Positions 34,428 to 61,036 of a stretch of 63,439 nucleotides of DNA are shown in pieces. The position numbers and the translations under genes are program-made. Under the pieces are notes generated by a model that was not told the origin of the DNA, did not search any database, and saw only the letters and a list, made by a program, of their open reading frames with translations. Numbering within the stretch: position 1 is the first letter of the stretch; every line of letters starts with the position of its first letter. Source of the DNA: an uncultured Acidimicrobiaceae bacterium (GTDB lineage: Bacteria > Actinomycetota > Acidimicrobiia > Spongiisociales > ZC4RG35); NCBI GenBank assembly GCA_964645875.1, contig CAZYCX010000003.1:1-63439 (forward strand). Reading direction: 5' to 3'.

Positions 34428-34480
34428 CACAGAAGCGGAAGACCTGGATCGAATTCGTCCCCGTCCTTTTTGCCGACTCT

Positions 34481-36536: not shown

Positions 36537-37231
36537 CCAAACCACGTCTCGCCCTGACCAGCACACCCGAGCGGGCGGTCTCCCTGGGGGCAGTCGCCCA
36601 GAGTGCCGGCCTGGCGCCGGTCTCATTGCCCTGCATCGAGTACGTCCCCGTCGACTCCTCGATCGTCGAGATGGCGCGGGCCAGGGCCGCCGGTTGCGAC
36701 TGGCTGGTACTGACCTCGGCGCGGGCGGTGGCCACCCTCTGGCCGCGGGGAGGTATCCCCGCCGCTTCTGTGGCCGCCGTCGGGCCCGCCACCGCGGCAG
36801 CGGTGAGGACGGCAGGAGGCGACCCCAGCCTGGTCGGAGACGCCGGATCCGAAGAGTTGTTCGATCGCTTGTCAGGAGCCATCGCCGGGCAATCGGTCTT
36901 CGTTCCCCACGCCGCCGCAGCCGACCTGTCCAGGCTCGACATCTTGGAGGCGGCCGGAGCCGTCGTCGACACCATGGCCGTCTACGACGTCAGGCCGATC
37001 GCCCCTGGCGGTGACCCGGTGGAAGCGGTGGCCTTCGGCTCACCGACCGCGGTCGAGGGGTGGCTCTCCGCCCGCACTCTGGACGGGTTGGTCGTGGGGG
37101 CGATCGGAGAGACTACGAAGGCTTCACTCACAGCGCATGAGATGGCCGCAGACTTCGTTCCCGAGGAGCCCTCGTTCGAGGATTTGATCAGCCTGATCGC
37201 GGCCGGTCTGAGAGACAGGAGCACCGTATGA
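36533..37231 (+). CDS. hemD: Uroporphyrinogen-III synthase
   Basis: GTGA overlap with the hemC stop. The HemD-like two-lobe pattern (WLVLTSARAV, VAAVGPATA, AFGSPTAV) and the position in the cluster support the call. Confidence 0.8.
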   Translation: MTKPRLALTSTPERAVSLGAVAQSAGLAPVSLPCIEYVPVDSSIVEMARARAAGCDWLVLTSARAVATLWPRGGIPAASVAAVGPATAAAVRTAGGDPSLVGDAGSEELFDRLSGAIAGQSVFVPHAAAADLSRLDILEAAGAVVDTMAVYDVRPIAPGGDPVEAVAFGSPTAVEGWLSARTLDGLVVGAIGETTKASLTAHEMAADFVPEEPSFEDLISLIAAGLRDRSTV

Positions 37232-38208
37232 CACGATTCCCGGAGTTGCGGAGTCGCCGGCTCCGCCGGACCGAGGCACTGCGCCGCCAGGTGGCGGAGA
37301 CCCGTCTTCATCCCGCATCCTTCGTGTTGCCGCTCTTCGTCGTTCCCGGCAGGGATGTGAGCAACCCGATCGGATCGATGCCAGGGCATTCCCAGCTCTC
37401 GGTGGACGAGATGATCCCGGTGGTCAAGGAGGCTGCTTCTGCCGGCGTGGGAGGCGTGATCCTCTTCGGCATTCCCGAAGCCAAAGACGAGTCGGGTTCC
37501 GGGGCATGGGACGTTGCCGGGCCGGTGCCTGAGGCAATCCGCGCCATCAAGGATCAGGTGGCGGATATCACAGTGTGGGCAGACGTCTGTCTCTGTGAGT
37601 ACACCAGCCATGGCCACTGCGGCGTTCTCGATGGTGAGTCGGTGGACAACGACCGGACCCTCCCGCTCCTGGCTCAGGCTGCGATGGTCTACGCAGACGC
37701 CGGAGCCGACGTAATCGCCCCCTCCGACATGATGGACGGGCGCGTCGGTGCCATCAGGGAGGCGCTCGATTCTGCTGCCCACGAGGAGCTCGCCATCTGC
37801 TCGTATTCGGCCAAGTATGCGAGCGCCTACTACGGGCCTTTCCGGGACGCGGCCGAGTCGGCGCCCGCCTTTGGGGACCGGCGCACTCACCAGATGGACC
37901 CGCCGAATGTGCGGGAGGCTCTGGTCGAGGTTGCCCTCGATTTGGCCGAGGGTGCGGACATGGTGATGGTCAAACCGGCCGGGCCTTACCTCGACGTGAT
38001 CTCGGCAGTCCGTTCCCGCGTCGACATCCCGGTGGTGGCTTACCAGGTGTCCGGAGAGTTCTCGATGATCGAGGCCGCCGCGGCCAACGGCTGGGTCGAC
38101 GGCGACAGGGTCATGCTGGAGTCGCTGACAGCAATCGCCCGCGCCGGTGCCGGCATCACCCTCACCTACTTCGCCACCCGGGCGGCCCGGGCACTCGCCG
38201 GAGGCTGA
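37228..38208 (+). CDS. hemB: Porphobilinogen synthase (ALA dehydratase)
   Basis: RLRR...LR, LFGIP, ADVCLCEYTSHGHCG, APSDMMDGR, YSAKYASAYYGPFR, VKPA. ATGA overlap. Confidence 0.94.
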   Translation: MTRFPELRSRRLRRTEALRRQVAETRLHPASFVLPLFVVPGRDVSNPIGSMPGHSQLSVDEMIPVVKEAASAGVGGVILFGIPEAKDESGSGAWDVAGPVPEAIRAIKDQVADITVWADVCLCEYTSHGHCGVLDGESVDNDRTLPLLAQAAMVYADAGADVIAPSDMMDGRVGAIREALDSAAHEELAICSYSAKYASAYYGPFRDAAESAPAFGDRRTHQMDPPNVREALVEVALDLAEGADMVMVKPAGPYLDVISAVRSRVDIPVVAYQVSGEFSMIEAAAANGWVDGDRVMLESLTAIARAGAGITLTYFATRAARALAGG

Positions 38209-38213
38209 TCGAG

Positions 38214-39491
38214 ATGACTGCGACGAATACGGACTGGTACGAGCGTGCGGTTCGGGTGATGCCCGGGGGTGTCAACTCGCCGGTGCGTGCCTTCAAGGGA
38301 GTGGGCGGGGTGCCGCCTTTCGTGGAGAGCGCCGCCGGCGCACGTCTCACGACGCTCGACGACGGCGATCTCATCGACTTCATCGCCTCCTGGGGGGCGC
38401 TCATCCTCGGCCATGCCGAGCCCACGGTGGTGGAGGCCGTCGAGGAGGCGGCGAGAAGGGGCACGTCGTTCGGGATAACCACCAGTCAGGAGGTCGAGAT
38501 CGCCGAGCTCATCTGCGCGATGGTCCCGTCCATCGAGGTGATGCGGATGGTCAACTCGGGAACCGAGGCCACTGCTTCGGCGATACGGGTGGCGCGTGCC
38601 GCCACCGGCCGTCAGGGGATCATCAAGTTCGAGGGTTGCTACCACGGTCATGCCGACCCGTTCCTGGTCAAGGCGGGTAGCGGGGCCGCCACTCTCGGAG
38701 AGCCGGACAGTCCCGGCGTGCCCGCCGGGACCGTGGCCGACACCCGGATCGCGCGCTTCAACGATCTCGAATCGGTGGAGAAGGCCCTGGCCGAGGGTGG
38801 GATCGCCGCCGTCATAGTCGAGCCCGTTGCCGGGAACATGGGCGTCGTGCCTCCCCAGCCCGGGTTCCTCGAGGGGTTGCGACAGCTCTGCGACGACAAC
38901 GGCGCCATCCTGATCTTCGACGAGGTCATGACGGGCTTTCGTGTCGCCCGTGGCGGTGCTCAGGATCGTTACGGGGTGGCCCCCGACCTCACCTGCCTCG
39001 GCAAGATCGTCTCAGGGGGAACGCCGTCGGCGGTCTATGGAGGGCGGGAGGACCTCATGCGTCGGGTTGCCCCGGACGGCCCCGTCTACCAGGCCGGCAC
39101 ACTGGCCGGCAACCCGCTGACGGTCGCCGCCGGACTGGCAACCCTGCGGGCCATCGAGGCGAGCCCCGAGATCTATGACGAGTTGGAGTCCCTGGGGGCA
39201 GTCCTGGAGGACGAACTGGCCGGCGCCCTGACGGAGAACGGAATCGAGGGCTGTGTTCAGAGGGCCGGTGCGATGATGACGGTGTTCTTCGGCCCAACCG
39301 AGGTGCGCTCTTGGGACGAGGCCGCTCTTGTCGATCGAGACCGCTTCTCCCGTTTCTTCCACGCTGCGTATCGGTCCGGGGTCCTCCTCCCGCCGTCGCC
39401 GTTCGAAGCCCTGTTCCTGATGCGGGCACACCGCGGTGTGGTCACGGAGGCCACAGATCTCCTCGTCGAAGCAGTCGGGGCTGCCGCTTGA
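38214..39491 (+). CDS. hemL: Glutamate-1-semialdehyde 2,1-aminomutase
   Basis: MPGGVNSPVRAF, SWGALILGH, NSGTEA, ILIFDEVMTGFR, GKIVSGG. Confidence 0.94.
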   Translation: MTATNTDWYERAVRVMPGGVNSPVRAFKGVGGVPPFVESAAGARLTTLDDGDLIDFIASWGALILGHAEPTVVEAVEEAARRGTSFGITTSQEVEIAELICAMVPSIEVMRMVNSGTEATASAIRVARAATGRQGIIKFEGCYHGHADPFLVKAGSGAATLGEPDSPGVPAGTVADTRIARFNDLESVEKALAEGGIAAVIVEPVAGNMGVVPPQPGFLEGLRQLCDDNGAILIFDEVMTGFRVARGGAQDRYGVAPDLTCLGKIVSGGTPSAVYGGREDLMRRVAPDGPVYQAGTLAGNPLTVAAGLATLRAIEASPEIYDELESLGAVLEDELAGALTENGIEGCVQRAGAMMTVFFGPTEVRSWDEAALVDRDRFSRFFHAAYRSGVLLPPSPFEALFLMRAHRGVVTEATDLLVEAVGAAA

Positions 39492-40477
39492 GCCGACCCC
39501 TCCTCGACGCTCTCGCACTCCGGCCGCTGCCGCATCCACCGGTATGGATCATGCGTCAGGCCGGTCGCTACCTGCCCGAGTATCGCGCCGTCCGGGAACG
39601 GCACAGTTTCCAGGAGGTGGTGGGCACACCGGAGCTCGCCACCGAGGTGACACTGCAACCGATTCGGCGCTTCGGGATGGACGGGGCAGTGATCTTCGCC
39701 GATATCATGACCCCGCTGGAGGCCATGGGAGTCGAGATGACCTTCGACCCCGGGCCGAGGCTGAGCCCACTGACACTCACCGAAGTCGTCGACCTGCCCG
39801 TACTCGACCCGTCTCTGGTCTCCCACGTCGCGACGACGGTTCGCCTGGTGCGCGAGTCTGCGCCGGCGGAGACGGCGGTGATCGGTTTCGCCGGCGCACC
39901 GGTGACTCTCCTCGCCTATCTCCTCGAGGGTGGCGGTTCCAAGGACTTCCTGACCATGCGGGCCGCGCTGCGGGCAGATCCTCGAGCCGCTTCGGCCGCA
40001 CTGGAGAACCTGGCCCTCTCGATGAGGACCTATCTCCGCGTCCAGACCGAGTCGGGCGCCGATGTCGTTCAGCTGTTCGACACCTGGGCGGGGCTGTGTG
40101 ATCGGGACCTATTCGCCCGGATGGCGGTGCCTGCCGCCGCCCGGAGCCTCGACGACGTGGCGGCTCCGACGATCTACTTCGCCCCTGGTGCCGGGCACAC
40201 CCTCGACCTTCAGCCCGAAATCGGCGCCACCGGGTACGGAGTCGACTGGAGGACGGACCTCGAGACTGCCTTCGAGACCTTCGCCGGGCGAGCGGTCCAG
40301 GGAAACCTCGACCCGGCAGTTCTTCGCACCGACCCCGGGACGATCGGTGACGAGGTGGAATCGCTGCTCGGTCGCGCCGCAGGGCGACCCGGGCACATCA
40401 TGAACCTGGGTCATGGCATCGATCGGCACACCCCTCCCGACAACGTCGCCGCGTTCGTGGAGGCGGTCCGCTCTTGA
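39488..40477 (+). CDS. hemE: Uroporphyrinogen decarboxylase
   Basis: PPVWIMRQAGRYLPEYR, LQPIRRFGMDGAVIFADI, NLGHGI. TTG 39488 overlaps the hemL stop. The upstream ORF extension is out of context. Confidence 0.9.
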   Translation: MSRPLLDALALRPLPHPPVWIMRQAGRYLPEYRAVRERHSFQEVVGTPELATEVTLQPIRRFGMDGAVIFADIMTPLEAMGVEMTFDPGPRLSPLTLTEVVDLPVLDPSLVSHVATTVRLVRESAPAETAVIGFAGAPVTLLAYLLEGGGSKDFLTMRAALRADPRAASAALENLALSMRTYLRVQTESGADVVQLFDTWAGLCDRDLFARMAVPAAARSLDDVAAPTIYFAPGAGHTLDLQPEIGATGYGVDWRTDLETAFETFAGRAVQGNLDPAVLRTDPGTIGDEVESLLGRAAGRPGHIMNLGHGIDRHTPPDNVAAFVEAVRS

Positions 40478-41772
40478 GTGTGGTCGTGGTCGGAGGTGGG
40501 CTGGCCGGTCTGTTCTCTGCCTCCGAGCTCATGTCCATGGGTGTGGAGGACCTGGTCGTGGTCGAGGCCTCCCCGGCTCCCGGCGGTGTCGTGCGCACCC
40601 TGACGCGAGACGGATTCTCCCTGGAGCCGGGGGCGGGATCGTTCAGCCTGCCTCATCCGTATCTGGGACCTATCTTGCGGCGGGCCGGGGTGGTCACCAG
40701 GCCGGCAGAGGCAGGAGGGCGCCATGTGTTCACAGAGGGGAGTCTGGTGGAGTTGAGGGCCTCGCCAAGGATGCTCTTCACGCCACTGGTTCCGCTCCCG
40801 GCGGGTCTGCGCGCCATGGCCGAGATCCTGATACCGACGCGGTCCGACCCCGACGAGACCATTGCCGGTTTCTGTCGTCGCCGTTTCGGCCGGGGCGCGG
40901 GCGACGTGCTGTCCTGGCTCTTGGCCTCGGGAGTGTTCGCCGGTGATCCGAGTCGACTCTCGACACAGGCCGCCTTTCCTGTCCTGGAGGCACTGGAACG
41001 TGAATCGGGCTCGGTGGTGGTGGGTGTGCTGCGAAGACGCCTGGCCCGCTCCTTCGGAGGACGGGCCCGAATCCATGTACCGGTGGGGGGCATGGCGGCC
41101 GTCGCCGAGCTGATCGCTGAAACGCTGGGGGATCGATTTCGTCCGGGGTTCACCGTCGAGTCGGTGTATTCAGACGGTGATCGGTGGGTGGTGACCGGCC
41201 CGGAAGCCATCACGACCGAGTCGGTGGTGCTGGCGGTGCCCCCACATCTAGCTGTGGGGATGGTGGACCCGGAGCTCGCCGCCGTCCTCTCCGAATCCTC
41301 GAATGCTCGGGTGGCGGTGGTCTGGATCGGGGGAACGGCCCCTTCGCCCCTCCCTGAGGGCTTCGGTGCCCTGGTAGGACCGGGCGAGGGGATGCCGACA
41401 CGTGGGATCCTCTTCGAGTCGTCGTACGCACCCGAGCGCGCTCCGGACGGGTCCTGGCTGATCAAGGTGATAGTGGGTGGGGCCACTCAGCCCGACGTCG
41501 TCGATTGGAGCGACGAGAAGCTCACCGCGAGCACCGTCGAGGATGCCGGCAGGATCGTCGGCGCCGACTTGAGCCCGTCATTCGTCGAGTTGATCAGACA
41601 CCGCCCCGGAATCCCTCAATACGAGGTCGGCCACCTGCAGTGGCTTCGTCGGGTGAACTCGCTGCTGGGGGCCAGGTCGGGTCTGAGAGTCGCCGGATGG
41701 GGATATCACGGGGTGGGTGTGGCCAGTCTGGCGATGGGAGCGTCCAGACTCGCCAGGGAAATCGTCAGCTGA
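40474..41772 (+). CDS. hemY: Protoporphyrinogen/coproporphyrinogen III oxidase (FAD, HemY/CgoX-PgoX family)
   Basis: VVVVGGGLAGL dinucleotide motif, family-typical C-terminus (PQYEVGH...AGWGYHGVGV). TTGA overlap with hemE. Confidence 0.88.
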   Translation: MSVVVVGGGLAGLFSASELMSMGVEDLVVVEASPAPGGVVRTLTRDGFSLEPGAGSFSLPHPYLGPILRRAGVVTRPAEAGGRHVFTEGSLVELRASPRMLFTPLVPLPAGLRAMAEILIPTRSDPDETIAGFCRRRFGRGAGDVLSWLLASGVFAGDPSRLSTQAAFPVLEALERESGSVVVGVLRRRLARSFGGRARIHVPVGGMAAVAELIAETLGDRFRPGFTVESVYSDGDRWVVTGPEAITTESVVLAVPPHLAVGMVDPELAAVLSESSNARVAVVWIGGTAPSPLPEGFGALVGPGEGMPTRGILFESSYAPERAPDGSWLIKVIVGGATQPDVVDWSDEKLTASTVEDAGRIVGADLSPSFVELIRHRPGIPQYEVGHLQWLRRVNSLLGARSGLRVAGWGYHGVGVASLAMGASRLAREIVS

Positions 41773-48930: not shown

Positions 48931-49037
48931 GGACGGCAGCGGTGCCCCAGGAGGCCGGTATTGATCGTGGGTGGGTGGGAGTCGCTGATCGTCCGGGAGG
49001 TGGACCAACCCGGTTCCGGGGCGATAGGTTGCCATCC

Positions 49038-51347
49038 ATGAGAGTCGTCTGTGTCGGTGGCGGTCCCGCCGGTCTCTACCTGGCCATCCAGCTCAAGAAG
49101 GCCCGTCCCGACCACGAGATCACCATTCTCGAGAGGAATCGCCCCGGCGACGCCTACGGATTCGGCGTCGTGTTCTCGGAGGAGACACTCGATCACTTCG
49201 CCGCGGCCGATCTCGAGTCCTACGAGGAGCTGACCAAGGCTTTTCGGGAATGGGGCGACATCGAAGTGCGCCACTTCGCCGGCGAGCGTTTCGTCTCAGG
49301 GGGCCATGGCTTCGCCGCCGTCGGCCGCAAGGAGCTTCTCGCTCTCCTCAGCCGTCGCGCCGAGGAGCTAGGTGTCGACCTCCGATTCTCGACCGAGGTG
49401 CCCGCCCTCGCATCGGTGAGCGACGCCGACCTCGTGGTGGGGGCAGATGGGGCCAACTCGATGGTGCGGGCGGAGCTGGCCGAGCGGTTGCAGCCGTCGG
49501 TCGACTGGAGGGTCAACAAGTACATCTGGTTCGGCACCGAGAAGGTGTTCGATCGTTTCCACTTCATCTTCGTGGACACGCCATCCGGTCTCGTGTGGGC
49601 CCATATCTACCCGTACTCGTCGGAGGGGAGCACCTTCATCGTGGAGATGGCACCCGACACCTGGCGCGCGTTGGGGCTCGATCGCACCGAAGACGAGGTC
49701 TTCCCGCCCGGGGTCAGCGACGAGCATGCCCTGGAGGTGTGCGAGTCGCTGTTCGCCTCGCACCTCGACGGCTACGGGCTGATCGGCAACAACTCGAAAT
49801 GGCTCCGGTTCCCGACGGTCACGTGCGAGAAGTGGCACGACGGGAACGTCGTGCTGGTGGGAGACGCGGCACACACCGCCCACTTCTCCGTGGGCTCGGG
49901 TACGAAGCTGGCGATGGAGGACGCGATCGCCCTCGCCGAAGTGCTGGCGGAGGGCGATCCGCTTCCCGATGCGCTCGAGACTTACGAGACGGTCCGCCGT
50001 CCCGAAGTGGAGAGCCTGCAGCGGGCGGCGAAGGCGAGCCTGGAGTGGTTCGAAGGGGCGGACCGATACCGCCACTTGGAACCCGAGCAGTTCGTCTTCA
50101 GCATGCTGACCCGCAGTCAGCGGGTCACCTACGACAACCTGCGTCTCCGCGACCCCGAGTACATGGCATCCGTCGACCGCTGGTACGCCACCTCCGACCA
50201 CGGCTCTCCGGTACCGACCCACCCGGAGACTCCGCCGATGTTCCACCCCTTCCAGGTGCGGGACGTCGTGCTCCCCAACCGTGTCGTGGTGTCACCGATG
50301 GACCAGTACTCGGCCGTCGACGGGATGCCAAACGACTGGCATCTGGTACATCTGGGGAGCCGGGCCGTCGGTGGGGCCGGGTTGGTCATGACGGAGATGA
50401 CCTGCGTTTCTCCCGAGGGGCGGATCTCCCCTGCGGACACCGGGATCTGGAACGACGAACAGGAGGCCTACTGGGGGCGCATCGTCGCGTTCGTCCACGA
50501 GCACTCGGTGTCGCGTATCGGGCTCCAGATCGGCCACTCCGGGAGAAAGGGGTCCACCAAGCGGATGTGGGAGGGTGACACCGACCCGCTCGACGAAGGC
50601 AACTGGGATATCATGGCGCCGTCGCCGATCAGGTATCGGCCCGACAGCCAGGTCCCGAGAGAGATGACGAGGTCCGACATGGACGTGGTCTTGGCCCAGC
50701 ACGTGGAGGCGGCGGAACGGGGAGACCGGGCGGGCTTCGACTGGTTGGAGCTCCATTTCGCCCACGGATACCTGGCTTCCAGTTTCCTCACGCCTCTGGC
50801 CAACCAGAGGTCGGATCGATACGGCGGCTCGTTGCAGAACCGGATGCGTTACCCGCTGGAGATCTTCGACGCGGTGCGGAAGGTGTGGCCGGAAACCAAG
50901 CCGATCTCGGTACGGATCTCGGCCACCGACTGGGTGCCGGGCGCCTTCGACGGCGACGACGCGGTCGAGTTCTCCCGGGCGCTTCGTGATCACGGATGTG
51001 ATCTGATCGACGTGTCCACCGGCCAGACTTCGATCCATGCCCGTCCCGAGTACGGGCGTCTCTATCAGACACCTTTCAGCGACCGGATCCGCAACGAGGT
51101 GGGGATGGCGACGATGACGGTCGGCGCGGTGTCGTCGATCGACGACATTCACAACATCCTCGTCGCCGGCCGCGCCGACCTGTGCGTCATGGCCCGCCCC
51201 CACCTGGTCGACCCTTACTGGACCCTCAACGCCGCCATCGATCTCGGCTACACCGGGCATCGGTTCCCCAACCAGTATCTCTCCGGGCTCGCTGCCAGGA
51301 GACGGGAACAGGATCCGATCGCCCCGGACGTGTTCCGCCAGGGCTGA
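49038..51347 (+). CDS. Bifunctional FAD-dependent aromatic-CoA-type monooxygenase / Old Yellow Enzyme-family NADH:flavin oxidoreductase (salicylyl-CoA 5-hydroxylase / 2-aminobenzoyl-CoA monooxygenase-reductase-like)
   Basis: N-terminus [14 protein letters not shown]...[18 protein letters not shown]-terminus [11 protein letters not shown]...HSGRKGS...ELHFAHGYL...SDRYGGS (OYE motifs). Confidence 0.85.
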
Positions 51348-53524: not shown

Positions 53525-54928
53525 TTACTTGGTGCGCCAGGACCCCTGGGCGTAGCCCTCGCGTGCGTCCCTCGAGAACGGAGTGGGCGCCACCCGGACC
53601 CTGATCTCGGTCTGCTCGTGCGACTCCACCGTGGTCTTTGCCGTCCCGCCGTCCTCCTCGCCCCACACCAGGGTGAGCTGGTCGCCCTCTTCGATGTCGG
53701 GGCCGACCACTCCGAGTGAGAGGAAGGCACGGTCGTTGAACGTGTACCCGCTGAACATCGAGAAGCCGACATGGCCCCCGTCGTCGTCGACCACCTTGTC
53801 GTAGGTGGCCGACGTGTAGTTGGAGAGGGGGAGATCGATGTACTTGATGTTCTCTCCGGGGGCGTTGAACATCGAGCGCCACACCTCCACCACATCGTCG
53901 GTGTTCCACTCGAAGGTCACCTTCTTGCGATGCTCTTGGTCGTGGGTCTTCTCGAGGGCGTCACGGCCGATGAAGTCGTGGTCGAACTTCACGTAGAAGC
54001 CATAGCCGAGCTCGTAGGGGGTCAGGTAGTAGTCCTCGATGTCGTCGGACACGAAGCTCCCTCCGATCGACCCCGCCGCCTCATAGGAGTCCCCCGGGAG
54101 CCACTCCCGGTAAGCCTTCATCTCGTCCCCCGAGTAGACGGCGGGCAGCGGCGAGGGGATCCATCCCGATTCGAGCGTGTTGGTGGCGTAGGCGCGTGAT
54201 CCCACCGGCACCAGCCCGAACTCGGCTCCGGCTTCGAGGATGGCGCTGCGGATCTCCTCGCCCTGCTCATAGGGGCCCCAGATCTCCATGCCGGGCGCAC
54301 CGGCCATGCCGTGGTGGAACGCCGGGACCTCGCGGCCGGCGACCTTCATCGTGCCCACGTTGAAGAACTTCACGTCGGGTATCGGCCCACCGTTGAGCTT
54401 CTCCAGGACCTTCATCGCGTTCGGTCCCTGGATCTGATACCGATAGTGACGTCGGACCACAGGCTGACCCATGGGACGGGCGGGTGACCTGTCGTCCCTT
54501 TCCAGCTCGACGTCCCAGTCGCCGGTCTCGGCATGGAACTGGACCCAGTTCACCGTGGGTACCCGTCCCACCATGTTGAACTTCTCGTCCTCGGGACGGA
54601 ACAGGATCACGTCTCCGATGACGTGCCCGCCGTAGCTGGTGGGGACGAAGTGCTTCGCCCTGGTGGTGGGGAAGTTGGCGAAGCTGTTTATGGCCAGCGA
54701 CGAGAGCAGTGCTTCCGCTTCGGGTCCCTCCACCGTCAGCTCGGCCATGTGATGCGACTGATCGAAGAGGACCGCGGTCTCCCGCCAGGCTCTCTGCTCG
54801 TCGCGCCAGTTGCTGAACTCGGAGGGGACGACCGGATACACATAGGCTCCGATCGGGGAGTTGCGCAACATCGAGACGACGTTGTCGGTGGACTGGAGAA
54901 CGTCTTCGAGGCTCTGATGGTGGGTCAC
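53525..54928 (-). CDS. GcvT/aminomethyltransferase-family tetrahydrofolate-dependent demethylase (LigM/DesA-like), paralogue 1
   Basis: About 467 aa. FSNWRDEQRAWRETAVLFDQSHHM, EGPEAEALL, FHHGMAGAPGMEIWGP. GTG 54928 is preceded by gaggaga. Confidence 0.8.
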   Translation of the reverse strand: MTHHQSLEDVLQSTDNVVSMLRNSPIGAYVYPVVPSEFSNWRDEQRAWRETAVLFDQSHHMAELTVEGPEAEALLSSLAINSFANFPTTRAKHFVPTSYGGHVIGDVILFRPEDEKFNMVGRVPTVNWVQFHAETGDWDVELERDDRSPARPMGQPVVRRHYRYQIQGPNAMKVLEKLNGGPIPDVKFFNVGTMKVAGREVPAFHHGMAGAPGMEIWGPYEQGEEIRSAILEAGAEFGLVPVGSRAYATNTLESGWIPSPLPAVYSGDEMKAYREWLPGDSYEAAGSIGGSFVSDDIEDYYLTPYELGYGFYVKFDHDFIGRDALEKTHDQEHRKKVTFEWNTDDVVEVWRSMFNAPGENIKYIDLPLSNYTSATYDKVVDDDGGHVGFSMFSGYTFNDRAFLSLGVVGPDIEEGDQLTLVWGEEDGGTAKTTVESHEQTEIRVRVAPTPFSRDAREGYAQGSWRTK

Positions 54929-54968
54929 TTGGGTCTCCTCACACTGGCGACGTCCACCGATCATACGT

Positions 54969-54985
54969 ACTGAACGTTGTTCAGT
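54969..54985. promoter_or_regulatory. Inverted repeat ACTGAAC-gtt-GTTCAGT in the divergent promoter region
   Basis: 7-bp perfect arms with a 3-nt spacer, 41 nt upstream of the demethylase start and ~36 nt upstream of the riboswitch. Confidence 0.35.
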
Positions 54986-55020
54986 GTCTCTTCTCGCCGG
55001 CAGGCTCTTGTATCCTCACG

Positions 55021-55123
55021 GTGGTCATCTAGAGCGGCCGAGGGACAGGCCCGACGAAGCCGCGGCAACCACTCACCGGCGAGAAGGTGCCAATGCCTGA
55101 TCGATGATGACGTCGATGAGGTG
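55021..55123 (+). promoter_or_regulatory. SAM-I (S-box) riboswitch
   Basis: TCATC-T-AGAG-C-GGCC-GAGGGA-CA-GGCCC-GA-CGAA-GCCGC-GGCAACC...GGTGCCAATGCC...GATGA matches the SAM-I core (AGAGnGG..GAGGGA..GGCCC..UGAA.CC..GCAACC..GGUGCcAAuuCC). P2 is GCGGC/GCCGC. P1 is UCAUC/GAUGA. The P1 3-prime strand runs into the SD GAGGTG, 6 nt before ATG 55129. Confidence 0.85.
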
Positions 55124-55128
55124 AACGT

Positions 55129-56277
55129 ATGGCCCGTGGTCAGGTGAACGAACCGGTCGGTGGGGAGATCGATCGGTTCTTCGACAATCGCGCCGCCTAT
55201 CTGATGTTCACGACCGCCACCAACGAGAAGGCGGTGGTCGCGGAGCGGATCGGCGCGGAGCTCGACCTGATCGGGCCGGGAGAGTCAGCCCTGAGAGTGT
55301 TCGACGCCGGCATGGGCGATGCTTCGGTGTTGAGCCAGCTGATGCGTCGCATGCACACCGTGTTCCCGCACATCCCCTGGCTGGTGGTCGCCAAGGAGAT
55401 CTCGATCGAAGACCTCCGGTTGGCTTTGGGCCGGATGCCGGACCGGCTCTTCGAGCATCCCGAGATGGTCCTGGTGGTGACCAACATGAACTATCGGGAG
55501 GCTCCCGCGTTGGTCCCGGTTGGGGACAACGCCTCCCAACTGAACTGGATCGAAGCTCCGCTCGAAGGCTCCACCGCCGACGACTTCGGCCGGCAGATCC
55601 ACGACCTCTTCGACGACCTGGCGCGTGCCTGGGAAGTGGTCACCAGCCCCAAGACCGGCAACCCCCTCTATGCCACGCCCTCGGCGCTGGTGGTCTACCG
55701 CCGTGATCGCCAGTTCATCCTGAAGCGGGTGATCCCCGAGCCGGGCGGGATCGAGGGTCGTTACGACCTCGTTGTCGCCTCGCAGCCCTACCGGGCCCGG
55801 ACCAGCGCCGAGAGGAAGACGCGGACGGTGCTGGTTCCCTTGTCCCGGGCGCTCGCTCCCGGCGGTCGCCTGGTGGTGGTCCATGCCCACGGCAACGACC
55901 CCGGTCTCGAGATCATCCGCAACGTCTGGCCGGGCGAGGACCCGTTCCAGACCGGGCGTGCAGACCTGTTGGCCGAGGCACAACGCCAACTCACCGATCC
56001 CGAGGACGCCGCTTTGGTGTATCCCCACCTCAGCGACGAGGAGGCGATCTTCCGTTACGAACTCCACGCGATGCCCTCCGAGAGGACGGAGCACATCGGG
56101 ACCGGCCTGACCCTCGCCGCCTGGAACGCCGCCGCCTACGTTGCCCAGATAGACGAGTCCCGGCTCTCTGCTGCCATGGCCTCCGGCGTCTACGTGGAGG
56201 CGACCCGGGAGGTCCTGGCGCGCTACGGAGGGGTCTGGTTCAACGACGAGGCGTACGTGATCACCCGCTCAGTGTGA
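55129..56277 (+). CDS. Uncharacterised protein with class I methyltransferase-fold motifs, under SAM-I riboswitch control
   Basis: 382 aa. LRVFDAGMGDASV (motif I-like) and YDLVVASQPY...LAPGGRLVVVHAHG (post-motif-like), separated by a long insertion. Family not recognised. Confidence 0.8.
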   Translation: MARGQVNEPVGGEIDRFFDNRAAYLMFTTATNEKAVVAERIGAELDLIGPGESALRVFDAGMGDASVLSQLMRRMHTVFPHIPWLVVAKEISIEDLRLALGRMPDRLFEHPEMVLVVTNMNYREAPALVPVGDNASQLNWIEAPLEGSTADDFGRQIHDLFDDLARAWEVVTSPKTGNPLYATPSALVVYRRDRQFILKRVIPEPGGIEGRYDLVVASQPYRARTSAERKTRTVLVPLSRALAPGGRLVVVHAHGNDPGLEIIRNVWPGEDPFQTGRADLLAEAQRQLTDPEDAALVYPHLSDEEAIFRYELHAMPSERTEHIGTGLTLAAWNAAAYVAQIDESRLSAAMASGVYVEATREVLARYGGVWFNDEAYVITRSV

Positions 56278-56358
56278 CTGGACGCTCTCCAGCCGGCACG
56301 TGGCGAATCCCCTAGATAGGATCCACCAGAGTGTCCAGGGACGTTTACCGGGGCCTGC

Positions 56359-56388
56359 TTGACACTCTCGCAATCTGAACCGTACTGT
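56359..56388 (+). promoter_or_regulatory. Sigma-70-like promoter candidate for the TRAP genes
   Basis: TTGACA (56359-56364), 18-nt spacer, TACTGT (56383-56388), ~70 nt upstream of GTG 56460. Confidence 0.3.
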
Positions 56389-56459
56389 TTGCGTACGCAG
56401 GCCGCACATTTGTTCGTTATTCGGACAGATGGGGCAGGACCTAATGAGGAGGAAGAGAC

Positions 56460-57605
56460 GTGAAACGCATTAGAGGGATCTGGCGGTTCTCGATGGTCTT
56501 GGTGGTGGTGGCGTTGATCGCTGCCGCCTGTGGTGATGGTGACACCACCGACACCACGGAGCCCCCGGCCGCCACGACCACAGCCCCGTCGGGGGACACG
56601 ACCACGACGGAGGCGATGGAGGATACGACGACCACGGCCGCCGATTCGATGGACTTCGGTGACCCGGTGACGTTGACATTGGGTCATCCGTTCCCGGCGG
56701 TCCACCCGATCGCGGTGAACGCCCTGGAGCCGTATGCGGAGGCTGTCAACGAGGCCACCAACGGGACGATCTCGATCGAGTTCCAACCGGGCGGCGCGCT
56801 GGCGGCTCCTCCGGCCACCTTCGAGAACACCGTGGCCGGCGGTCAGGACATGGGTTGGGCCCTCCAGGGGTATCACGCCGGTGTCTTCCCGGTGACCGAG
56901 ATCGTCGAACAGCCCTTCCAGTTCAGCTCGGCGATGCAGGCCACCCAGACGCTGTGGGACCTCTACGACGAGTTCCCGGCGTTGCAGGACGAGTATTCGG
57001 ACGTCCAACTGCTCGGACTGTGGACCCATGACATCGGTGACATCTGGACCAAGGATGTCCCGGTGCAGACGGTCGAGGACATGCAGGGACTGACCCTCAG
57101 GTTCCCCACCGGGATCATGGGCCTGGTGATGGAGGCCTTGGGTGCGACGACGGTCGGTCTGCCCGCACCGGAGATCTTCGACTCGCTGTCGACCGGGGTC
57201 ATCGACGGTCTGTCCATCGCGGTCTCCGGCTTGGAGAGCTTCCAGCTCTACCCCGAGCTGAATTACGGGACCACCTGTGACTGCTACGTGGCCGCCCAGT
57301 ACCTGGTGATCAACCTGGACAGCTGGAACTCGTTGGCACCGGACGCCCAACAGGTGATGCTGGATCTGGGTCGTGAATACTCCCTCGTGGCCGCCGAGGT
57401 CTACGACCAGGCCTATGTGGCGATCTTCCAGAAGGCGATGGACGAGGGCATCGAGATCTACGAGCTGCCCGAGGACGAGCTTGCCCGCTGGCATGAGATC
57501 GGACAGCAGGTCACCGACGAGTGGATCGCCGCTCGTGAGGACGCCGGTGTCCCCGCTCAGGACATGTACGACCGGATGCAGGACATCAAGGCCGGATATC
57601 AATAG
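56460..57605 (+). CDS. dctP: TRAP transporter substrate-binding lipoprotein (DctP type)
   Basis: Lipobox LIAAACGDG, Thr-rich linker, DctP-family body. GTG start preceded by aggaggaag. Confidence 0.85.
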   Translation: MKRIRGIWRFSMVLVVVALIAAACGDGDTTDTTEPPAATTTAPSGDTTTTEAMEDTTTTAADSMDFGDPVTLTLGHPFPAVHPIAVNALEPYAEAVNEATNGTISIEFQPGGALAAPPATFENTVAGGQDMGWALQGYHAGVFPVTEIVEQPFQFSSAMQATQTLWDLYDEFPALQDEYSDVQLLGLWTHDIGDIWTKDVPVQTVEDMQGLTLRFPTGIMGLVMEALGATTVGLPAPEIFDSLSTGVIDGLSIAVSGLESFQLYPELNYGTTCDCYVAAQYLVINLDSWNSLAPDAQQVMLDLGREYSLVAAEVYDQAYVAIFQKAMDEGIEIYELPEDELARWHEIGQQVTDEWIAAREDAGVPAQDMYDRMQDIKAGYQ

Positions 57606-57621
57606 TCCGTAGAAGCGAAGC

Positions 57622-57656
57622 GGAGGTGGTGACCGTCTTGTACGGTCACCACCTCT
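57622..57656 (+). terminator. Perfect 14-bp stem-loop between dctP and dctQ (attenuator or mRNA-stabilising hairpin)
   Basis: gaggtggtgaccgt-cttgt-acggtcaccacctc followed by tgttg, 17 nt after the dctP stop. Confidence 0.55.
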
Positions 57657-57746
57657 GTTGATTGCCGGGGCTCTCTCTGCGGTTCCCGGCCGGTGTGAAG
57701 GAGGGTCAGCCTGGAGCCATCTGCCGACGATCGGACCCCGGACCAA

Positions 57747-58292
57747 TTGAAGGGGAGCCGTGGCACGCCACGCTGGGTCAGCTGGATCCGCCGCTTCAAC
57801 AGGTTCACCCATTACGTGTCGGGGTTGGCTCTGGTGGCGATCCTGGCCATGACGATCGTCGACATCGTCGGGCGGAATTTCTTCCGACAGCCTTTCCGGG
57901 GCACCGTCGAGCTGACCAGCATGATCCTGGTGGTGGTGGTGTTCATGGCCGTGGCCCGCTCCGAGGACATGGGCGACCACATCACCATCGACCTCATCTA
58001 CGAGCGGGTGGGTAAGGGCTCCAAGGCCTTTCTCGACATCTTCTCCGATCTGTTCACCGCAGTGGTGATGGCGTTGGTGTCCTACCGCCTCTACCAGTTC
58101 GTCCTCCGCAACCAGGCTTCGGGTGCGGAGACTCCGGTCCTCAACTTCCCCTTGTGGCCGTTCGTGGCGGTGGCGGCGGTCGGCGCCGCCTTGTACGTGG
58201 TCTCGACGGTGATGCGGGTGGTGCTGCGGTTGACGGGTGAGCCGGTCAACGCCGTCGATCCTCATGCGCCGGATGCGGGAGTGGAGGTTTGA
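57747..58292 (+). CDS. dctQ: TRAP transporter small permease (DctQ type)
   Basis: Four hydrophobic segments with the VDIVGRNFF motif. The start is uncertain. Confidence 0.8.
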   Translation: MKGSRGTPRWVSWIRRFNRFTHYVSGLALVAILAMTIVDIVGRNFFRQPFRGTVELTSMILVVVVFMAVARSEDMGDHITIDLIYERVGKGSKAFLDIFSDLFTAVVMALVSYRLYQFVLRNQASGAETPVLNFPLWPFVAVAAVGAALYVVSTVMRVVLRLTGEPVNAVDPHAPDAGVEV

Positions 58293-59590
58293 GCCCCGAA
58301 GTCGTCGGCATGCTGGGGATGCTCGCCCTGGTGGTCCTGTTGTTCATGCGGGTTCCGGTGGCGATCGCGATGATCGGTGTCGGACTGGTCGGGTTCGGGG
58401 TGATCATCAACTGGAACGCCGCCCTGGCGCGGCTCGGGTCGGACACCTTCTTCGCCGCCTCGCTCTACAGCCTCTCAGTGATCCCCCTGTTCGTCTTCAT
58501 GGGGCTGGTACTCGCCGCCTCGGCGTTGGGTGAGGACGTCTACAAGGCCATCGACGCCTTTCTGTGGCGTCTCCGCGGCGGCCTCGGAGTCGCCACCATC
58601 GGCGCTTCTGCCCTGTTCGGGGCCGTGAGCGGCTCGGCGGTCGCCTCCGCAACCACCATGTCGGTGGTGGCGGTGCCCGAGATGCAGCGGTTCGACTACG
58701 ACGACGGGTTCGCCGCCGGCACCGCCGCCGTCGGGGGAACCCTCGGGATCCTCATCCCCCCCTCGGCGATCCTGGTCCTCTACGGGGTGCTGACCGAAGA
58801 GCCCATCGGTCAGGTCCTCATCGGAGGCATCATTCCCGGGATCCTCACCACCGCCCTGTTGATGATCACCGCCTACCTGGTGGTCCGGGCCCGGCCCCAC
58901 TACGCCCCCCGACCCGCCGAGGCCCCCGACCTCAGCAAGTGGAAGGCGATCCGTCTGATATGGGCGGTGCCGGTGATATTCGGGATCAGCATGGGCGGCA
59001 TCTACTTCGGCTTGTTCACCCCCACCGAAGCCGGCGCCGCCGGCGCCTTTCTCTCCATCGCCTACGGCGTGATCACCAGACGCATGACATGGAGCGGGTT
59101 CATGGGAGCACTGAGCCGGACCATCCGCACCACCGCCTTCATCTTCATGCTCGTCATCGGCGGACAGATCTTCGGGTTCTTCCTGTCGGCATCCCGCATC
59201 CCCATCGAGCTCGGGCAATGGATCGAACAGCTCGACATCGCCGCCTGGATCATCATCACCCTCATCTTCGTCGTCTACTTCATCCTCGGAGCCCTCATGG
59301 ACGAGATCGCCATCCTCGTCATCATGACCCCCATCATGTACCCGGTGATCATCGGTCTCGAGTACTCCGGGGTGTGGTTCGGTGTGCTCACCATCATGAT
59401 GCTCCTCACCGGGCTCCTCCAGCCACCGGTCGGCCTCCTCTGCTTCGTGGTGTCCGGGGTCACCAAGATCCCCCTCCAGGACGTCTTCCGTGGCATCTTC
59501 CCGTTCGTGGGGGCGCTGGCCGTGGCCATCATGCTGGTCATCTTCTTCCCCGACCTGGTCACCTGGCTCCCCGACCTGATGACCAGATAG
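58289..59590 (+). CDS. dctM: TRAP transporter large permease (DctM type)
   Basis: 433 aa polytopic. GSGSAVASATTM and PPSAILVLYG motifs. TTGA overlap with dctQ (TTG start 58289, TGA stop 58290-58292). Confidence 0.9.
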   Translation: MSPEVVGMLGMLALVVLLFMRVPVAIAMIGVGLVGFGVIINWNAALARLGSDTFFAASLYSLSVIPLFVFMGLVLAASALGEDVYKAIDAFLWRLRGGLGVATIGASALFGAVSGSAVASATTMSVVAVPEMQRFDYDDGFAAGTAAVGGTLGILIPPSAILVLYGVLTEEPIGQVLIGGIIPGILTTALLMITAYLVVRARPHYAPRPAEAPDLSKWKAIRLIWAVPVIFGISMGGIYFGLFTPTEAGAAGAFLSIAYGVITRRMTWSGFMGALSRTIRTTAFIFMLVIGGQIFGFFLSASRIPIELGQWIEQLDIAAWIIITLIFVVYFILGALMDEIAILVIMTPIMYPVIIGLEYSGVWFGVLTIMMLLTGLLQPPVGLLCFVVSGVTKIPLQDVFRGIFPFVGALAVAIMLVIFFPDLVTWLPDLMTR

Positions 59591-59653
59591 CCCCCTTCGT
59601 TTTCGCGACAGGCCCCAAACGCGCCACTCGATGCGCGAAAAACGGTTGGTGGG

Positions 59654-61036
59654 CTAGGGGAGTGCGCCCGTTCGGTAGACCTCCCGGGCGACCTTGGCGT
59701 ACGGAACGGGGCTGACGATCGCCCTGATCTCCATCTGCACGTGTGGCTCCACGGTCGGTTTGGACGTTCCCCCCTCCGGCTCGCCCCAGATCAGAGTGAC
59801 CTCCCTCCCCGGCACGGCGTGCTCCTTGTCGAGGACGGCCAGGGTCAGCATCTTGGCTTCGTTCGAGCTGTAGCCGATCCACGTCGAGATCCCCATGGTG
59901 TCACCGTCGAGGGTCACCTCGTCATAGGGGTGCATCGAGTAGACAGCCGACGGGAACTCGATGAACTTGCCCCGCCGCTCCGGCTCGTCCAACTGTGAGC
60001 CGATCACTGCCAACACGTCGTCGTCTTCCAGGGCGAGAGTCACCTTCTCCCGGGGCGGATCGGCGGCCATCTCCCGGAGGGCCTCTTTGCCTATGTAGTC
60101 GTGGTCGAAGCGCACGAAGTGCCCGTATCCGAGGTCCCAGGGGGTGAAGTAGTAGTCCTCGATGTCCTCGGACACGAAGCTTCCGCCCAGCGAAGCCTTC
60201 GCTTCGTACGAATTCGCCGGCAGCCACTCACGGTATGCCTTCATCTCGGGGCTGGTGTAGATGGCGGGGAGGGGAGAGGGGATCCATCCCGACTCCAGGG
60301 TGTTGGAGGAGTAGGCCCTGGCCCCGACCCGCCGGATGCCGAACTCCTCGCCGGCTCCGACGATGGCCTCTACCACGGGCTCTTTGTCGTCCCATGGCCC
60401 GAACAGCTCGAAGCCGGGTTGGCCCGCCATGCCGTGCCTGAGGGCGCGCACCTGCCGACCCGCTATCTCCAACGTGGTCATGTTGAAGAAGCGCACCTCG
60501 GGTGGGGGGCCACCGAGCACCTTCTCCATCGTGGCCATGGCATTGGGCCCCTGGATCTGGACCCGGTAGGACCGCCGACGGGATGGGTCGTCGCGCATGA
60601 CGGTGCGCTCGTCGATCTCCCACTCCACGTCGAAGCCCCCGGTCTCGGCCTGGTACACGACCCAGTTGATCGATGGGATCCGACCCACCAACTCGTAGAC
60701 CTGGTCCTCGAGGTGGAAGAGGATGACATCTCCGATGACGTGGCCCTTGGGGGTGCAGGGGGCCAGTTGCTTGGCCTTGTCGACGTCGAAGCCTTCGAAC
60801 GAGTTGAAGCCGACCAGTTTCAGGACGTCGAGGGCTCCCGGGCCTTCGAGACGCAGATCGACCATGTGATAGGAGAGGTCGAACAGGATGCAGGTGTTCT
60901 GCCACGCCCACTGCTCGTCCCGCCAGTTGGTGAACTCGCCCGTGACCGGATAGACGTTGGGCCCCGTCTGCATGTTGCGCAGCATGTCGACCACGCTGTC
61001 GGTGCCCTCGATCAACTCCTGGAGATTGCTCGCCAC
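59654..61036 (-). CDS. GcvT/aminomethyltransferase-family tetrahydrofolate-dependent demethylase (LigM/DesA-like), paralogue 2
   Basis: 460 aa, colinear with 53525-54928 (FTNWRDEQWAWQNTCILFDLSYHM, RHGMAGQPGFELFGP, YTSPEMKAYREWLP). Confidence 0.8.
   Translation of the reverse strand: MASNLQELIEGTDSVVDMLRNMQTGPNVYPVTGEFTNWRDEQWAWQNTCILFDLSYHMVDLRLEGPGALDVLKLVGFNSFEGFDVDKAKQLAPCTPKGHVIGDVILFHLEDQVYELVGRIPSINWVVYQAETGGFDVEWEIDERTVMRDDPSRRRSYRVQIQGPNAMATMEKVLGGPPPEVRFFNMTTLEIAGRQVRALRHGMAGQPGFELFGPWDDKEPVVEAIVGAGEEFGIRRVGARAYSSNTLESGWIPSPLPAIYTSPEMKAYREWLPANSYEAKASLGGSFVSEDIEDYYFTPWDLGYGHFVRFDHDYIGKEALREMAADPPREKVTLALEDDDVLAVIGSQLDEPERRGKFIEFPSAVYSMHPYDEVTLDGDTMGISTWIGYSSNEAKMLTLAVLDKEHAVPGREVTLIWGEPEGGTSKPTVEPHVQMEIRAIVSPVPYAKVAREVYRTGALP

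Follow-up and report, generated by a model that had tools for sequence, protein, structure and literature searches.

A SAM-I riboswitch, a methyltransferase-fold protein and aryl O-demethylase genes in an uncultured Acidimicrobiia genome: a plausible mosaic of methyl-tetrahydrofolate modules

What does an S-adenosylmethionine (SAM)-responsive RNA control when it lies between two aryl O-demethylase genes and next to an importer operon? The question is raised by a locus in a 63-kb stretch of DNA (contig CAZYCX010000003.1, 65.7% G+C; hereafter the window) from the metagenome-assembled genome (MAG) of an uncultured member of the Acidimicrobiia (Actinomycetota). The nearest relatives of the window are Acidimicrobiia MAGs. 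Between 53.5 and 61.0 kb the order is ligM-like (-), SAM-I riboswitch (+), X382 (+), dctPQM (+) and desA-like (-), where ligM and desA stand for tetrahydrofolate (THF)-dependent demethylases, dctPQM for a tripartite ATP-independent periplasmic (TRAP) transporter, and X382 is our name for a protein family defined below. An initial annotation had listed the same elements, all of which we find at or near the positions it gave, and had joined them into one co-regulated methyl-harvesting unit in which SAM gates uptake and demethylation and the aromatic ring is not catabolized. On balance we lean toward a different picture, a mosaic of methyl-THF modules instead of a single operon under a SAM gate, because the control regions are separate and ligM, dctPQM and desA vary around a backbone that carries X382. 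The X382 family probably acts where harvested methyl groups are split between methionine and oxidation.

The riboswitch of the initial annotation is borne out. RF00162 matches with 72.7 bits against a gathering score of 44.4 (E = 4e-15) and is the lone Rfam match in the window; nine orthologous loci scanned with Rfam score 60.2 to 74 bits, and the leader of L002, which lies outside that scanned set, is of the same sequence type. The X382 start codon stands 19 nt past the end of the Rfam match. In the minimum free energy fold, GCCU (55095-55098) pairs with AGGU (55119-55122) as the lower stem of P4, and AGGU falls inside the Shine-Dalgarno (SD) sequence of X382, GAGGUG (55118-55123). AUCGAUG pairs with CGUCGAU above this stem, completing P4. 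The 5' strand of P1, GGUCAUC (55023-55029), pairs with G55127 and AUGGCC (55129-55134), start codon included. Rfam alignments of the orthologous leaders put P4 on this same SD-bearing hairpin, and an RNAalifold consensus of 10 orthologous leaders contains P1 to P4, the lower stem of P4 again including the SD; within the AUG, A and U are paired in all 10 and G in eight, with two further wobble pairs. Covariation is seen in P3, where four of these sequences carry one compensatory change and one sequence carries another.

A stringent scan finds no terminator-like site after the riboswitch. Because the SD and AUG sit in the P4 and P1 helices and no terminator follows, the element reads as a compact translational OFF switch that acts directly on X382 only; this anatomy is plain, and the response to SAM is the one predicted for the class. 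A second GAUGAU within P4 can pair with the same 5' strand of P1, in the register of Rfam's own alignment of the window, and would be a plausible SAM-free alternative that releases the SD and AUG. A TAnnnT box occupies the position of the putative -10 element in all riboswitch-bearing orthologs (TAGGTT, TAAATT, TAAGTT and TACGTT). The riboswitch is present in the window, L001, L002, L004, L005, L010-L012, L014 and L126, absent from L003, L006-L009, L015-L018 and L037, and degenerate in L038.

The remaining genes appear to be controlled separately, and nothing links ligM or desA to SAM. The palindrome, placed between the divergent promoters of ligM and X382, is retained in L001-L005 and L038 and probably lies across the -35 region that goes with a ligM -10 box, TATGAT. 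A shared operator before ligM, dctP and desA was considered and rejected: the palindrome ACTGAAC-N3-GTTCAGT was found once, and no common-regulon motif emerged. For dctPQM, the promoter originally proposed, TTGACA-N18-TACTGT, is not conserved, the stretch being deleted in two orthologous loci (L004 and L005). The idea of a promoter of its own survives in another form, as an ATAGGAT box and the dctP ribosome-binding site (RBS) are conserved in five of five orthologous X382-dctP spacers. A stringent scan of the X382-dctP region detects neither promoter nor terminator, and since no terminator was found between them, read-through from X382 into dctPQM is possible. The desA-like gene starts 52 nt after a PD40-repeat gene on the same strand. 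Between the convergent dctM and desA genes (59600-59642) lies an inverted repeat, TTTTCGCG ... CGCGAAAA, a possible bidirectional terminator with a loop (about 26 nt) that exceeds what the simple terminator scan allows.

Table 1. Features of the locus and their positions in the window
Feature	Position	Strand	Basis or remark
ligM-like, predicted THF-dependent vanillate/3-O-methylgallate O-demethylase	53525..54928	-	NF047885 match; 467 aa from GTG 54928
Palindrome ACTGAAC-GTT-GTTCAGT, candidate operator between divergent ligM/X382 promoters	54969..54985	.	Perfect; single copy in window
-10-like box TATCCT	55011..55016	+	Would start transcription at about the first base of P1
SAM-I riboswitch with built-in expression platform	55022..55134	+	RF00162 over 55022-55110
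X382, 382 aa, class I SAM-methyltransferase fold	55129..56277	+	AlphaFold2 model and Foldseek; no Pfam/NCBIfam match
-10-like box TAGGAT (in ATAGGAT), candidate dctPQM promoter	56317..56322	+	Invariant in 5/5 X382-dctP spacers
dctP, TRAP substrate-binding lipoprotein, lipobox LIAAAC	56460..57605	+	Pfam DctP 143 bits; NF037995 111.5 bits vs cutoff 50
dctQ, TRAP small membrane subunit	57747..58292	+	Pfam DctQ 83.5 bits
dctM, TRAP large permease	58289..59590	+	Pfam DctM 285 bits; TIGR00786 293.6 bits vs cutoff 268
desA-like, second predicted THF-dependent aryl O-demethylase paralog, 460 aa	59654..61036	-	NF047633 best-scoring model

In the clade of the window, the backbone abH-X382-PD40-hutF is stable and the modules around it come and go. 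All three of ligM, dctPQM and desA occur in L001 and L002; L004 has ligM and dctPQM, L038 ligM and desA, L003 and L006 ligM alone, L005 dctPQM alone, and L007-L009 none of the three. L006 has the order ligM-X382-coreMetE. Lacking TRAP genes, L003 and L038 carry a Liv/Cou-type ATP-binding cassette (ABC) importer (Peripla_BP_6 protein, permeases and ATPases) downstream of X382, where the window has dctPQM, which looks like displacement of one importer type by another. A SAM gate over the locus as a whole is therefore not supported: the riboswitch sequesters the SD and AUG of X382 alone, ligM, dctPQM and desA have control regions of their own, and the modules are mosaic in relatives.

The usual partner of X382 is a gene of the methylenetetrahydrofolate reductase (MTHFR) family. 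We collected 122 species-level loci around X382, 42 from a first scan and 80 from an alignment-based scan, and 85 of them have a sequence-divergent member of the MTHFR family immediately after X382 and in the same orientation, often a few bases away, with stop and start codons overlapping or nearly abutting. These loci span Acidimicrobiia and Alpha-, Beta- and Gammaproteobacteria; no description of the coupling was found in the literature searched. In Acidimicrobiia, riboswitch, X382 and MTHFR-like gene form an operon in L010, L011, L012 and L126, to which L012 adds core-MetE. L013 has the X382-MTHFR pair on a contig that ends inside X382, with the leader off the contig. In L129 the riboswitch (1442-1575) stands directly before the MTHFR-like gene, with no X382 and with ligM divergent upstream; the first codons of this MTHFR-like gene resemble the X382 N-terminus, and the arrangement has the appearance of a riboswitch-X382-MTHFR operon that has lost X382.

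Another recurrent neighbor is core-MetE (PRK06520, similar to PDB 1ypx), found within 7 kb of X382 in 30 of the 122 loci; X382, MTHFR-like gene and core-MetE are consecutive on one strand in L012, L050, L078, L083 and others. The cultured Pseudolabrys sp. Root1462 has the order pcaF-pcaH-pcaG-X382-MTHFR-like-ligM (reverse)-gntR-core-MetE, and ligM also stands beside the X382-MTHFR pair in Pseudolabrys L104, L111, L112 and L114. Other proteobacterial X382 loci add pcaIJ, CoA ligase, enoyl-CoA hydratase, Rieske oxygenase and two-cupin dioxygenase genes. In the lineage of the window, LigM and DesA are the neighboring methyl-THF sources instead of an adjacent MTHFR.

Several X382 loci have further features of their own. 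Two to five tandem core-MetE-like paralogs follow X382 and the MTHFR-like gene in L098, L103, L107, L108, L110, L120 and L121, from Pseudolabrys and related Alphaproteobacteria (at about 9.3-15.4 kb of each locus, and at 2.8-7.2 kb in L121); it is unlikely that all of these copies are methionine synthases. In a distant Acidimicrobiia clade (L016, L017 and L037, about 7100-8000), X382 has no riboswitch and overlaps the stop codon of a ROK-family (glucokinase-like) gene. A tRNA-Sec lies about 5.4 kb downstream of X382 in L016 (14527-14619) and L017 (14445-14537), both of the Rfam-scanned loci of that clade. A cobalamin riboswitch (1749-1995, minus strand) stands at a distance of 3.4 kb from X382 in L024, from a Casimicrobiaceae MAG; here the MTHFR-like gene is oriented divergently to X382 instead of following it.

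The best Protein Data Bank (PDB) relative of the MTHFR-like neighbor is 7XG9 (E = 6e-33 and 5e-56). Entries 7XG9 and 7XLF are S6MTHFR, the 'type 4' enzyme from Sphingobium lignivorans SYK-6 that oxidizes the methyl-THF made by LigM and DesA and has the signature residues L48-P49, R78, F215, C219 and P268-F269 (PMC11868366). The Pseudolabrys protein scores 193.5 bits against 7XG9 and keeps V48, P49, R78, F215, C219 and F269, with T268. The Acidimicrobiia (L010-type) protein reaches 117.6 bits, and of the signature residues only P49 and F269 remain, alongside S48, S78, I215, I219 and T268; threonine with a small residue is typical of forward MTHFRs. An identification with the mycobacterial flavin-independent Mfr is withdrawn, as 7XG9 is S6MTHFR and the mycobacterial enzyme is 7WMW/7WMZ. 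The association is one-sided: X382 usually occurs with the MTHFR-like gene, and S6MTHFR-like genes mostly occur without X382. S6MTHFR-like genes have other company as well. The Rfam element PYLIS_3 (mttB) lies just upstream of them in Acidimicrobiia and other Actinomycetota (L130, 3444-3543; L138, 3430-3533), which suggests that S6MTHFR-type genes also adjoin MttB-family methyltransferases. On plasmid p3 of a Haloferacaceae archaeon (CP175570.1; L184, 2339-4807), a DesA-like gene (44% identity) is immediately upstream of an S6MTHFR-like gene.

X382 itself matches nothing in Pfam or NCBIfam, and single-sequence and profile searches of the PDB return nothing below E = 0.02; a search of PLSDB plasmids returned nothing useful. 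The AlphaFold2 model is of good quality, with a predicted local distance difference test score of 89.5 and a predicted TM-score of 0.88, and Foldseek identifies 89 PDB matches at E <= 1e-3. Among the 50 listed, nearly all are methyltransferases or methyltransferase-fold enzymes, led by histamine N-methyltransferase (HNMT, 1jqd, E = 2e-8), OxaG, SABATH enzymes and TmtA, with TM-scores of 0.42 to 0.47 and about 10% identity. The 'unknown MT-fold gene' of the initial annotation is thus confirmed as to its fold. In an alignment of 130 sequences, motif I, FDAGxGDG (A60-G61-G63), the acidic E90 after strand 2, and N119 are at least 97% conserved, as are the polar residues D19, R21, E33, K34, E109-H110, R191, D193, Y337 and Q340. 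A SQPY motif follows strand 4, and an insertion of about 90 residues separates strands 3 and 4. The alignment contains no conserved cysteine for zinc or thiol activation. X382 therefore has the fold, motif I and acidic residue of a class I methyltransferase, and by sequence it does not belong to any described family. The GxGxG motif and the acidic residue suggest an adenosyl-type binding site.

Relatives of X382 occur in at least 564 species-level genomes by the alignment-based scan, and a representative-level search returns 892 clusters at 50% identity; the family is common in soil Pseudolabrys, Burkholderiales and Acidimicrobiia. None of the homologs listed in two large searches has a Pfam domain; those that bear a name are all 'hypothetical protein', with a single exception, a JGI entry called 'glycosyltransferase'. 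The proteobacterial members (P0271, residues 1-104; L043-L122) have an extra N-terminal four-helix domain of about 60 residues, whose consensus contains AESTFGRRAVNDGK, followed by a disordered linker of about 40 residues. This domain has no match in Pfam or the PDB; that it is a helix-turn-helix is a guess.

The two paralogs that flank the block are LigM/DesA-class enzymes, as the initial annotation held, and have the sizes it gave. The longest ligM-like open reading frame (ORF) reaches 54964, and the likely start is the GTG at 54928, with GAGGAG 7 nt before it. The encoded protein scores 719 bits on NF047885 (VanMgalDeMLigM; cutoff 580, model positions 1-459 of 461) and matches SYK-6 LigM (PDB 5x1i/5tl4) over its full length, residues 5-465 against 8-468, with 610.8 bits. 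The second paralog, about 51-53% identical to the first, scores 789.5 bits on NF047633 (SyrngDmethDesA), its top model, and 510 bits against the LigM structure. We call it DesA-like because it narrowly misses the NF047633 cutoff of 800 and also passes the LigM cutoff (602 bits on NF047885 against 580). Identities of the GcvT, DmdA or sarcosine-oxidase type are ruled out by scores far below the model cutoffs: 43.6-86.9 bits on GcvT models (cutoffs 235.85-300), 38-54 on DmdA (410) and 29-47 on SoxA (1164). By these model scores the paralogs do not group with glycine-cleavage T proteins. Their homology indicates that LigM and the DesA-like protein would transfer aryl O-methyl groups to THF.

All three TRAP components are recognized by Pfam and NCBIfam, in agreement with the initial annotation, and by homology the system is predicted to import an organic acid. 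The best PDB relatives of DctP are the TRAP substrate-binding proteins (SBPs) 7nrr, 7nsw, 7nr2, 4pgn and 4nap, at a modest similarity of 138 bits; we take these to be aromatic-acid binders. A vanillate- or syringate-type methoxylated aromatic acid would be the candidate substrate.

Viewed from LigM, the neighborhoods look different. A sample of 80 species-level loci at 66-96% identity, drawn from at least 582 relatives, has an S6MTHFR-like gene adjacent to LigM in 19 cases; in Chelativorans, Rhizobium and Mesorhizobium it closely precedes ligM in the same orientation, an order that resembles the SYK-6 operon. Orthologous TRAP genes (DctP 72-95% identical) accompany LigM in seven Acidimicrobiia loci (L201, L202, L208, L209, L213, L215 and L229), five of which have no X382, and a Liv-type binding protein is near LigM in eight of the 80. 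LigM and its importer are thus a genuine conserved pair in Acidimicrobiia, with or without X382, and the association of importer and demethylase that had been proposed is upheld, with an ABC importer in relatives that lack the TRAP. Core-MetE is near LigM in 10 of the 80 loci and directly downstream of ligM in four. X382 is near LigM in five, all in the clade of the window. LigM with an S6MTHFR-like gene and LigM with core-MetE are recurrent pairs, and X382 enters this network through MTHFR. Several Proteobacteria that lack X382 have a core-MetE-like gene directly 3' of ligM on the same strand (L245, 7554-9696; L250, 2843-3382; L270, 7439-8536; L276, 7437-8546); such an order may point to a direct link from LigM to methionine, or to some other function of MetE-like proteins.

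A mechanism that fits these observations can be outlined. The TRAP system would import a methoxylated aromatic acid, and LigM and the DesA-like protein would move its O-methyl groups to THF, so that 5-methyl-THF and either a catechol or a gallate are formed. Methyl-THF would then feed methionine synthase and hence SAM. With SAM abundant, the aptamer would fold, P4 would bury the SD of X382 and P1 its start codon, and X382 would not be translated. With SAM low, P1 would open, or its 5' strand would re-pair with the GAUGAU decoy inside P4, and X382 would be made. X382, as a SAM- or S-adenosylhomocysteine (SAH)-binding protein of methyltransferase fold, may act with an S6MTHFR-type oxidoreductase at the branch where methyl-THF goes either to methionine or to oxidation to methylene-THF. 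The link from methyl-THF to methionine and SAM that the initial annotation drew is in this respect plausible, the X382 family being tied across phyla to S6MTHFR-like genes, LigM and core-MetE; the control by SAM that went with it reaches X382 only.

Our tentative choice for X382 is a SAM-responsive accessory or regulatory partner of an S6MTHFR-type enzyme. We favor this role because of the adenosyl-type site, the one-sided coupling to MTHFR, and the placement of the family in SAM-repressed operons and catabolic clusters. The SAM-binding regulatory domain of eukaryotic MTHFR and MetW with MetX offer parallels. The more specific form, in which X382 serves S6MTHFR-type oxidoreductases either as a SAM/SAH sensor that splits the methyl-THF or as a link to their electron acceptor, is more doubtful. 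A number of observations weigh against this view. An MTHFR-like gene is missing both from the scanned ORFs of the window and, in the closest relatives, from the 8 kb to either side of X382. Few of the type-4 signature residues are kept in the MTHFR-like proteins of Acidimicrobiia, and because of this the direction of their reaction is uncertain. In an MTHFR-centered scan (the best 80 of 229 confirmed relatives, giving 78 newly fetched loci), X382 is missing from 74 of the 78 loci, and only the four closest carry it; none of the 80 listed is from the MAGs to which the closest relatives of the window belong. We know of no need for an X382-like partner in SYK-6. The invariant polar residues and the SQPY motif would suit the active site of an enzyme better than a pure sensor, and an OFF riboswitch before a SAM-binding protein is unusual whatever the role of that protein. 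Also, the ligand assigned to the TRAP system comes from sequence. The well-conserved polar pocket and the MTHFR gene missing from the scanned ORFs are the main weaknesses.

A different proposal is that X382 is a SAM-consuming small-molecule methyltransferase, which might O- or N-methylate a catechol, phenolic acid or amine of the pathway, the riboswitch sparing SAM when it runs short or tuning its use. Its closest structural neighbors are indeed small-molecule N-, O- and S-methyltransferases (HNMT, OxaG, SABATH and TmtA), motif I, E90 and N119 are conserved, the E109-H110 pair and SQPY resemble catalytic motifs of methyltransferases, and genes of aromatic catabolism abound in the surroundings. 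We nevertheless find it rather unlikely, as a SAM-I OFF switch would silence the gene at high SAM, whereas a SAM consumer needs the reverse, and as the proposal leaves unexplained both the tight coupling to MTHFR (85 of 122 loci) and the position of X382 ahead of the MTHFR-like gene in SAM-repressed operons. Alternatively, X382 could work downstream of methyl-THF, toward methionine, as a new methyl-THF-using methyltransferase or as a helper that lets core-MetE use methyl-THF. Core MetE proteins lack the folate-binding half of the enzyme. The core MetE families need methyl-supplying partner proteins (PMC7857596), X382 is predicted to be SAM-repressed like methionine-synthesis genes, it always adjoins a methyl-THF producer (MTHFR-like or LigM/DesA), and core-MetE within 7 kb in 30 of 122 loci, with several loci that have X382, the MTHFR-like gene and core-MetE in a row, would suit such a helper. 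The GxGxG motif and acidic residue point instead to an adenosyl ligand rather than folate, there is no conserved zinc or thiol cysteine in the alignment, most X382 loci have no core-MetE nearby, and LigM-coreMetE pairs exist without X382, all of which makes this role very improbable. Direct remethylation of SAH by methyl-THF was also considered and rejected as strongly uphill by our own thermodynamic estimate.

For the locus as a whole, the mosaic has to be set against two other accounts. The single unit of the initial annotation can appeal to the adjacency of its parts, all related to methyl-THF, to the missing terminator between X382 and dctP, which leaves read-through possible, to the lack of ring-cleavage genes among the scanned ORFs, and to SYK-6, where methyl-THF from methoxy groups sustains methionine synthesis and where added methionine slows growth on vanillate by inhibition (PMC11868366). 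It is hard to reconcile with a riboswitch that acts on the translation of X382, with ligM and desA on the opposite strand behind upstream regions of their own, with a dctP that has its own -10-like box and RBS, and with relatives that keep LigM and TRAP without riboswitch and X382, or riboswitch and X382 without LigM and DesA; homologous Pseudolabrys clusters, moreover, sit among pca ring-cleavage genes, and we regard the single unit as improbable. Its component idea, methyl harvesting rather than carbon catabolism, is one possible reading of the lack of ring-cleavage genes among the scanned ORFs, with the qualification that the window is 63 kb of a MAG and that the Pseudolabrys set lies inside a pcaHG/pcaIJ/pcaF cluster. 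Nor does it seem likely that there is no functional link at all, X382 and its riboswitch being an unrelated resident and LigM, TRAP and DesA having landed by chance in a recombination-prone spot. The stable abH-X382-PD40-hutF backbone among variable ligM, dctPQM and desA is what such an account would lead one to expect, and X382 is a rare neighbor from the LigM side (five of 80 loci). Yet LigM adjoins the X382-MTHFR pair in an unrelated phylum (the four Pseudolabrys loci named above), the usual partner of X382 is the type of MTHFR that is paired with LigM elsewhere, and several methyl-THF-related insertions, LigM, DesA, core-MetE and two kinds of aromatic-acid importer, have entered at one site.

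Beyond the locus, our scan covered 34 other ORFs of the window and left aside about a dozen smaller ORFs at 7.8-40.5 kb; the 34 include no ring-cleavage genes, no other one-carbon or methionine genes, and no MTHFR, FolD, PurU or LigH-like genes. Outside the locus, a single gene with a connection to aromatic catabolism turned up in the window. It is located 2.2 kb upstream of the locus (48942-51347, plus strand) and resembles a bifunctional salicylyl-CoA 5-hydroxylase/oxidoreductase (NF006101, 1134 bits against a cutoff of 1078). A heme biosynthesis cluster at 33483-41772 comprises coproporphyrinogen oxidase, hemA, hemC, hemB, hemL and a protoporphyrinogen-oxidase-like gene, with an extracytoplasmic function sigma factor and a histidine kinase downstream.

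THF-dependent O-demethylation is the entry of lignin-derived methoxy groups into one-carbon metabolism. Work on SYK-6 has shown that methoxy-derived methyl-THF feeds methionine and that the organism is sensitive to methionine, and in 2025 raised the questions of who takes the electrons of the methyl-THF-oxidizing MTHFR, whose electron acceptor is not known, and of how methyl-THF divides between methionine and oxidation (PMC11868366). X382 offers a concrete candidate, and a cultured host, Pseudolabrys sp. Root1462, is at hand. With this locus, the known range of LigM/DesA-type chemistry, here with a dedicated TRAP importer, comes to include uncultured Acidimicrobiia; the locus also provides a clean example of a SAM-I riboswitch in which SD and start codon are parts of the aptamer helices. 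The kinds of demethylase, transporter and riboswitch are already known, as is the support of methionine by methoxy-derived methyl-THF in SYK-6; new are their combination in an actinobacterial lineage, the compact riboswitch platform and, above all, the X382 family with its pervasive coupling to S6MTHFR-type genes.

Compared with known systems, the locus is closest to the ligM-metF-ligH and desA genes of SYK-6, where LigM/DesA-class enzymes likewise make 5-methyl-THF from methoxylated aromatic acids with a link to methionine (PMC11868366; PMC6888825), and an S6MTHFR-like gene is physically coupled in relatives of the window. The host differs, being an Acidimicrobiia MAG and not a sphingomonad. 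So does the content: the scanned ORFs of the window do not encode an MTHFR and a formyl-THF enzyme with ligM (neither metF nor ligH is among them), and the window has the TRAP, the SAM-I riboswitch and X382, none of which is in the SYK-6 module. The regulators of SYK-6 are the MarR-type DesR and DesX, whereas the window has a different palindrome and the riboswitch. With the SAM-I (S-box) riboswitches of metF, metE and yitJ-type genes (RF00162), the element shares a canonical aptamer and predicted repression by SAM, and its relatives control an MTHFR-like gene directly (L129) or as the second gene of an operon (L010, L011, L012 and L126); it differs in having no terminator, in placing the SD and start codon in P4 and P1, and in having X382, a methyltransferase-fold gene, as first gene. 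As in the aromatic-acid TRAP system TarPQM (PMC3610893), genes for a DctP-type SBP, DctQ and DctM adjoin aromatic-acid catabolic genes, and relatives of the window have an ABC system with a Peripla_BP_6 (CouP-like) protein, as in CouPSTU, at the dctPQM position; the DctP of the window is only modestly similar to characterized SBPs (the 138 bits above), so that its ligand remains a prediction from homology. Finally, X382 shares with class I SAM methyltransferases such as histamine N-methyltransferase the Rossmann-like fold, the GxGxG motif I and the acid at the end of strand 2, and departs from them in its identity of about 10%, its strand 3-4 insertion of some 90 residues and its lack of any Pfam, NCBIfam or PDB profile match. 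MetW and SAMTOR, SAM-sensing proteins of methyltransferase fold, belong to the same fold class.

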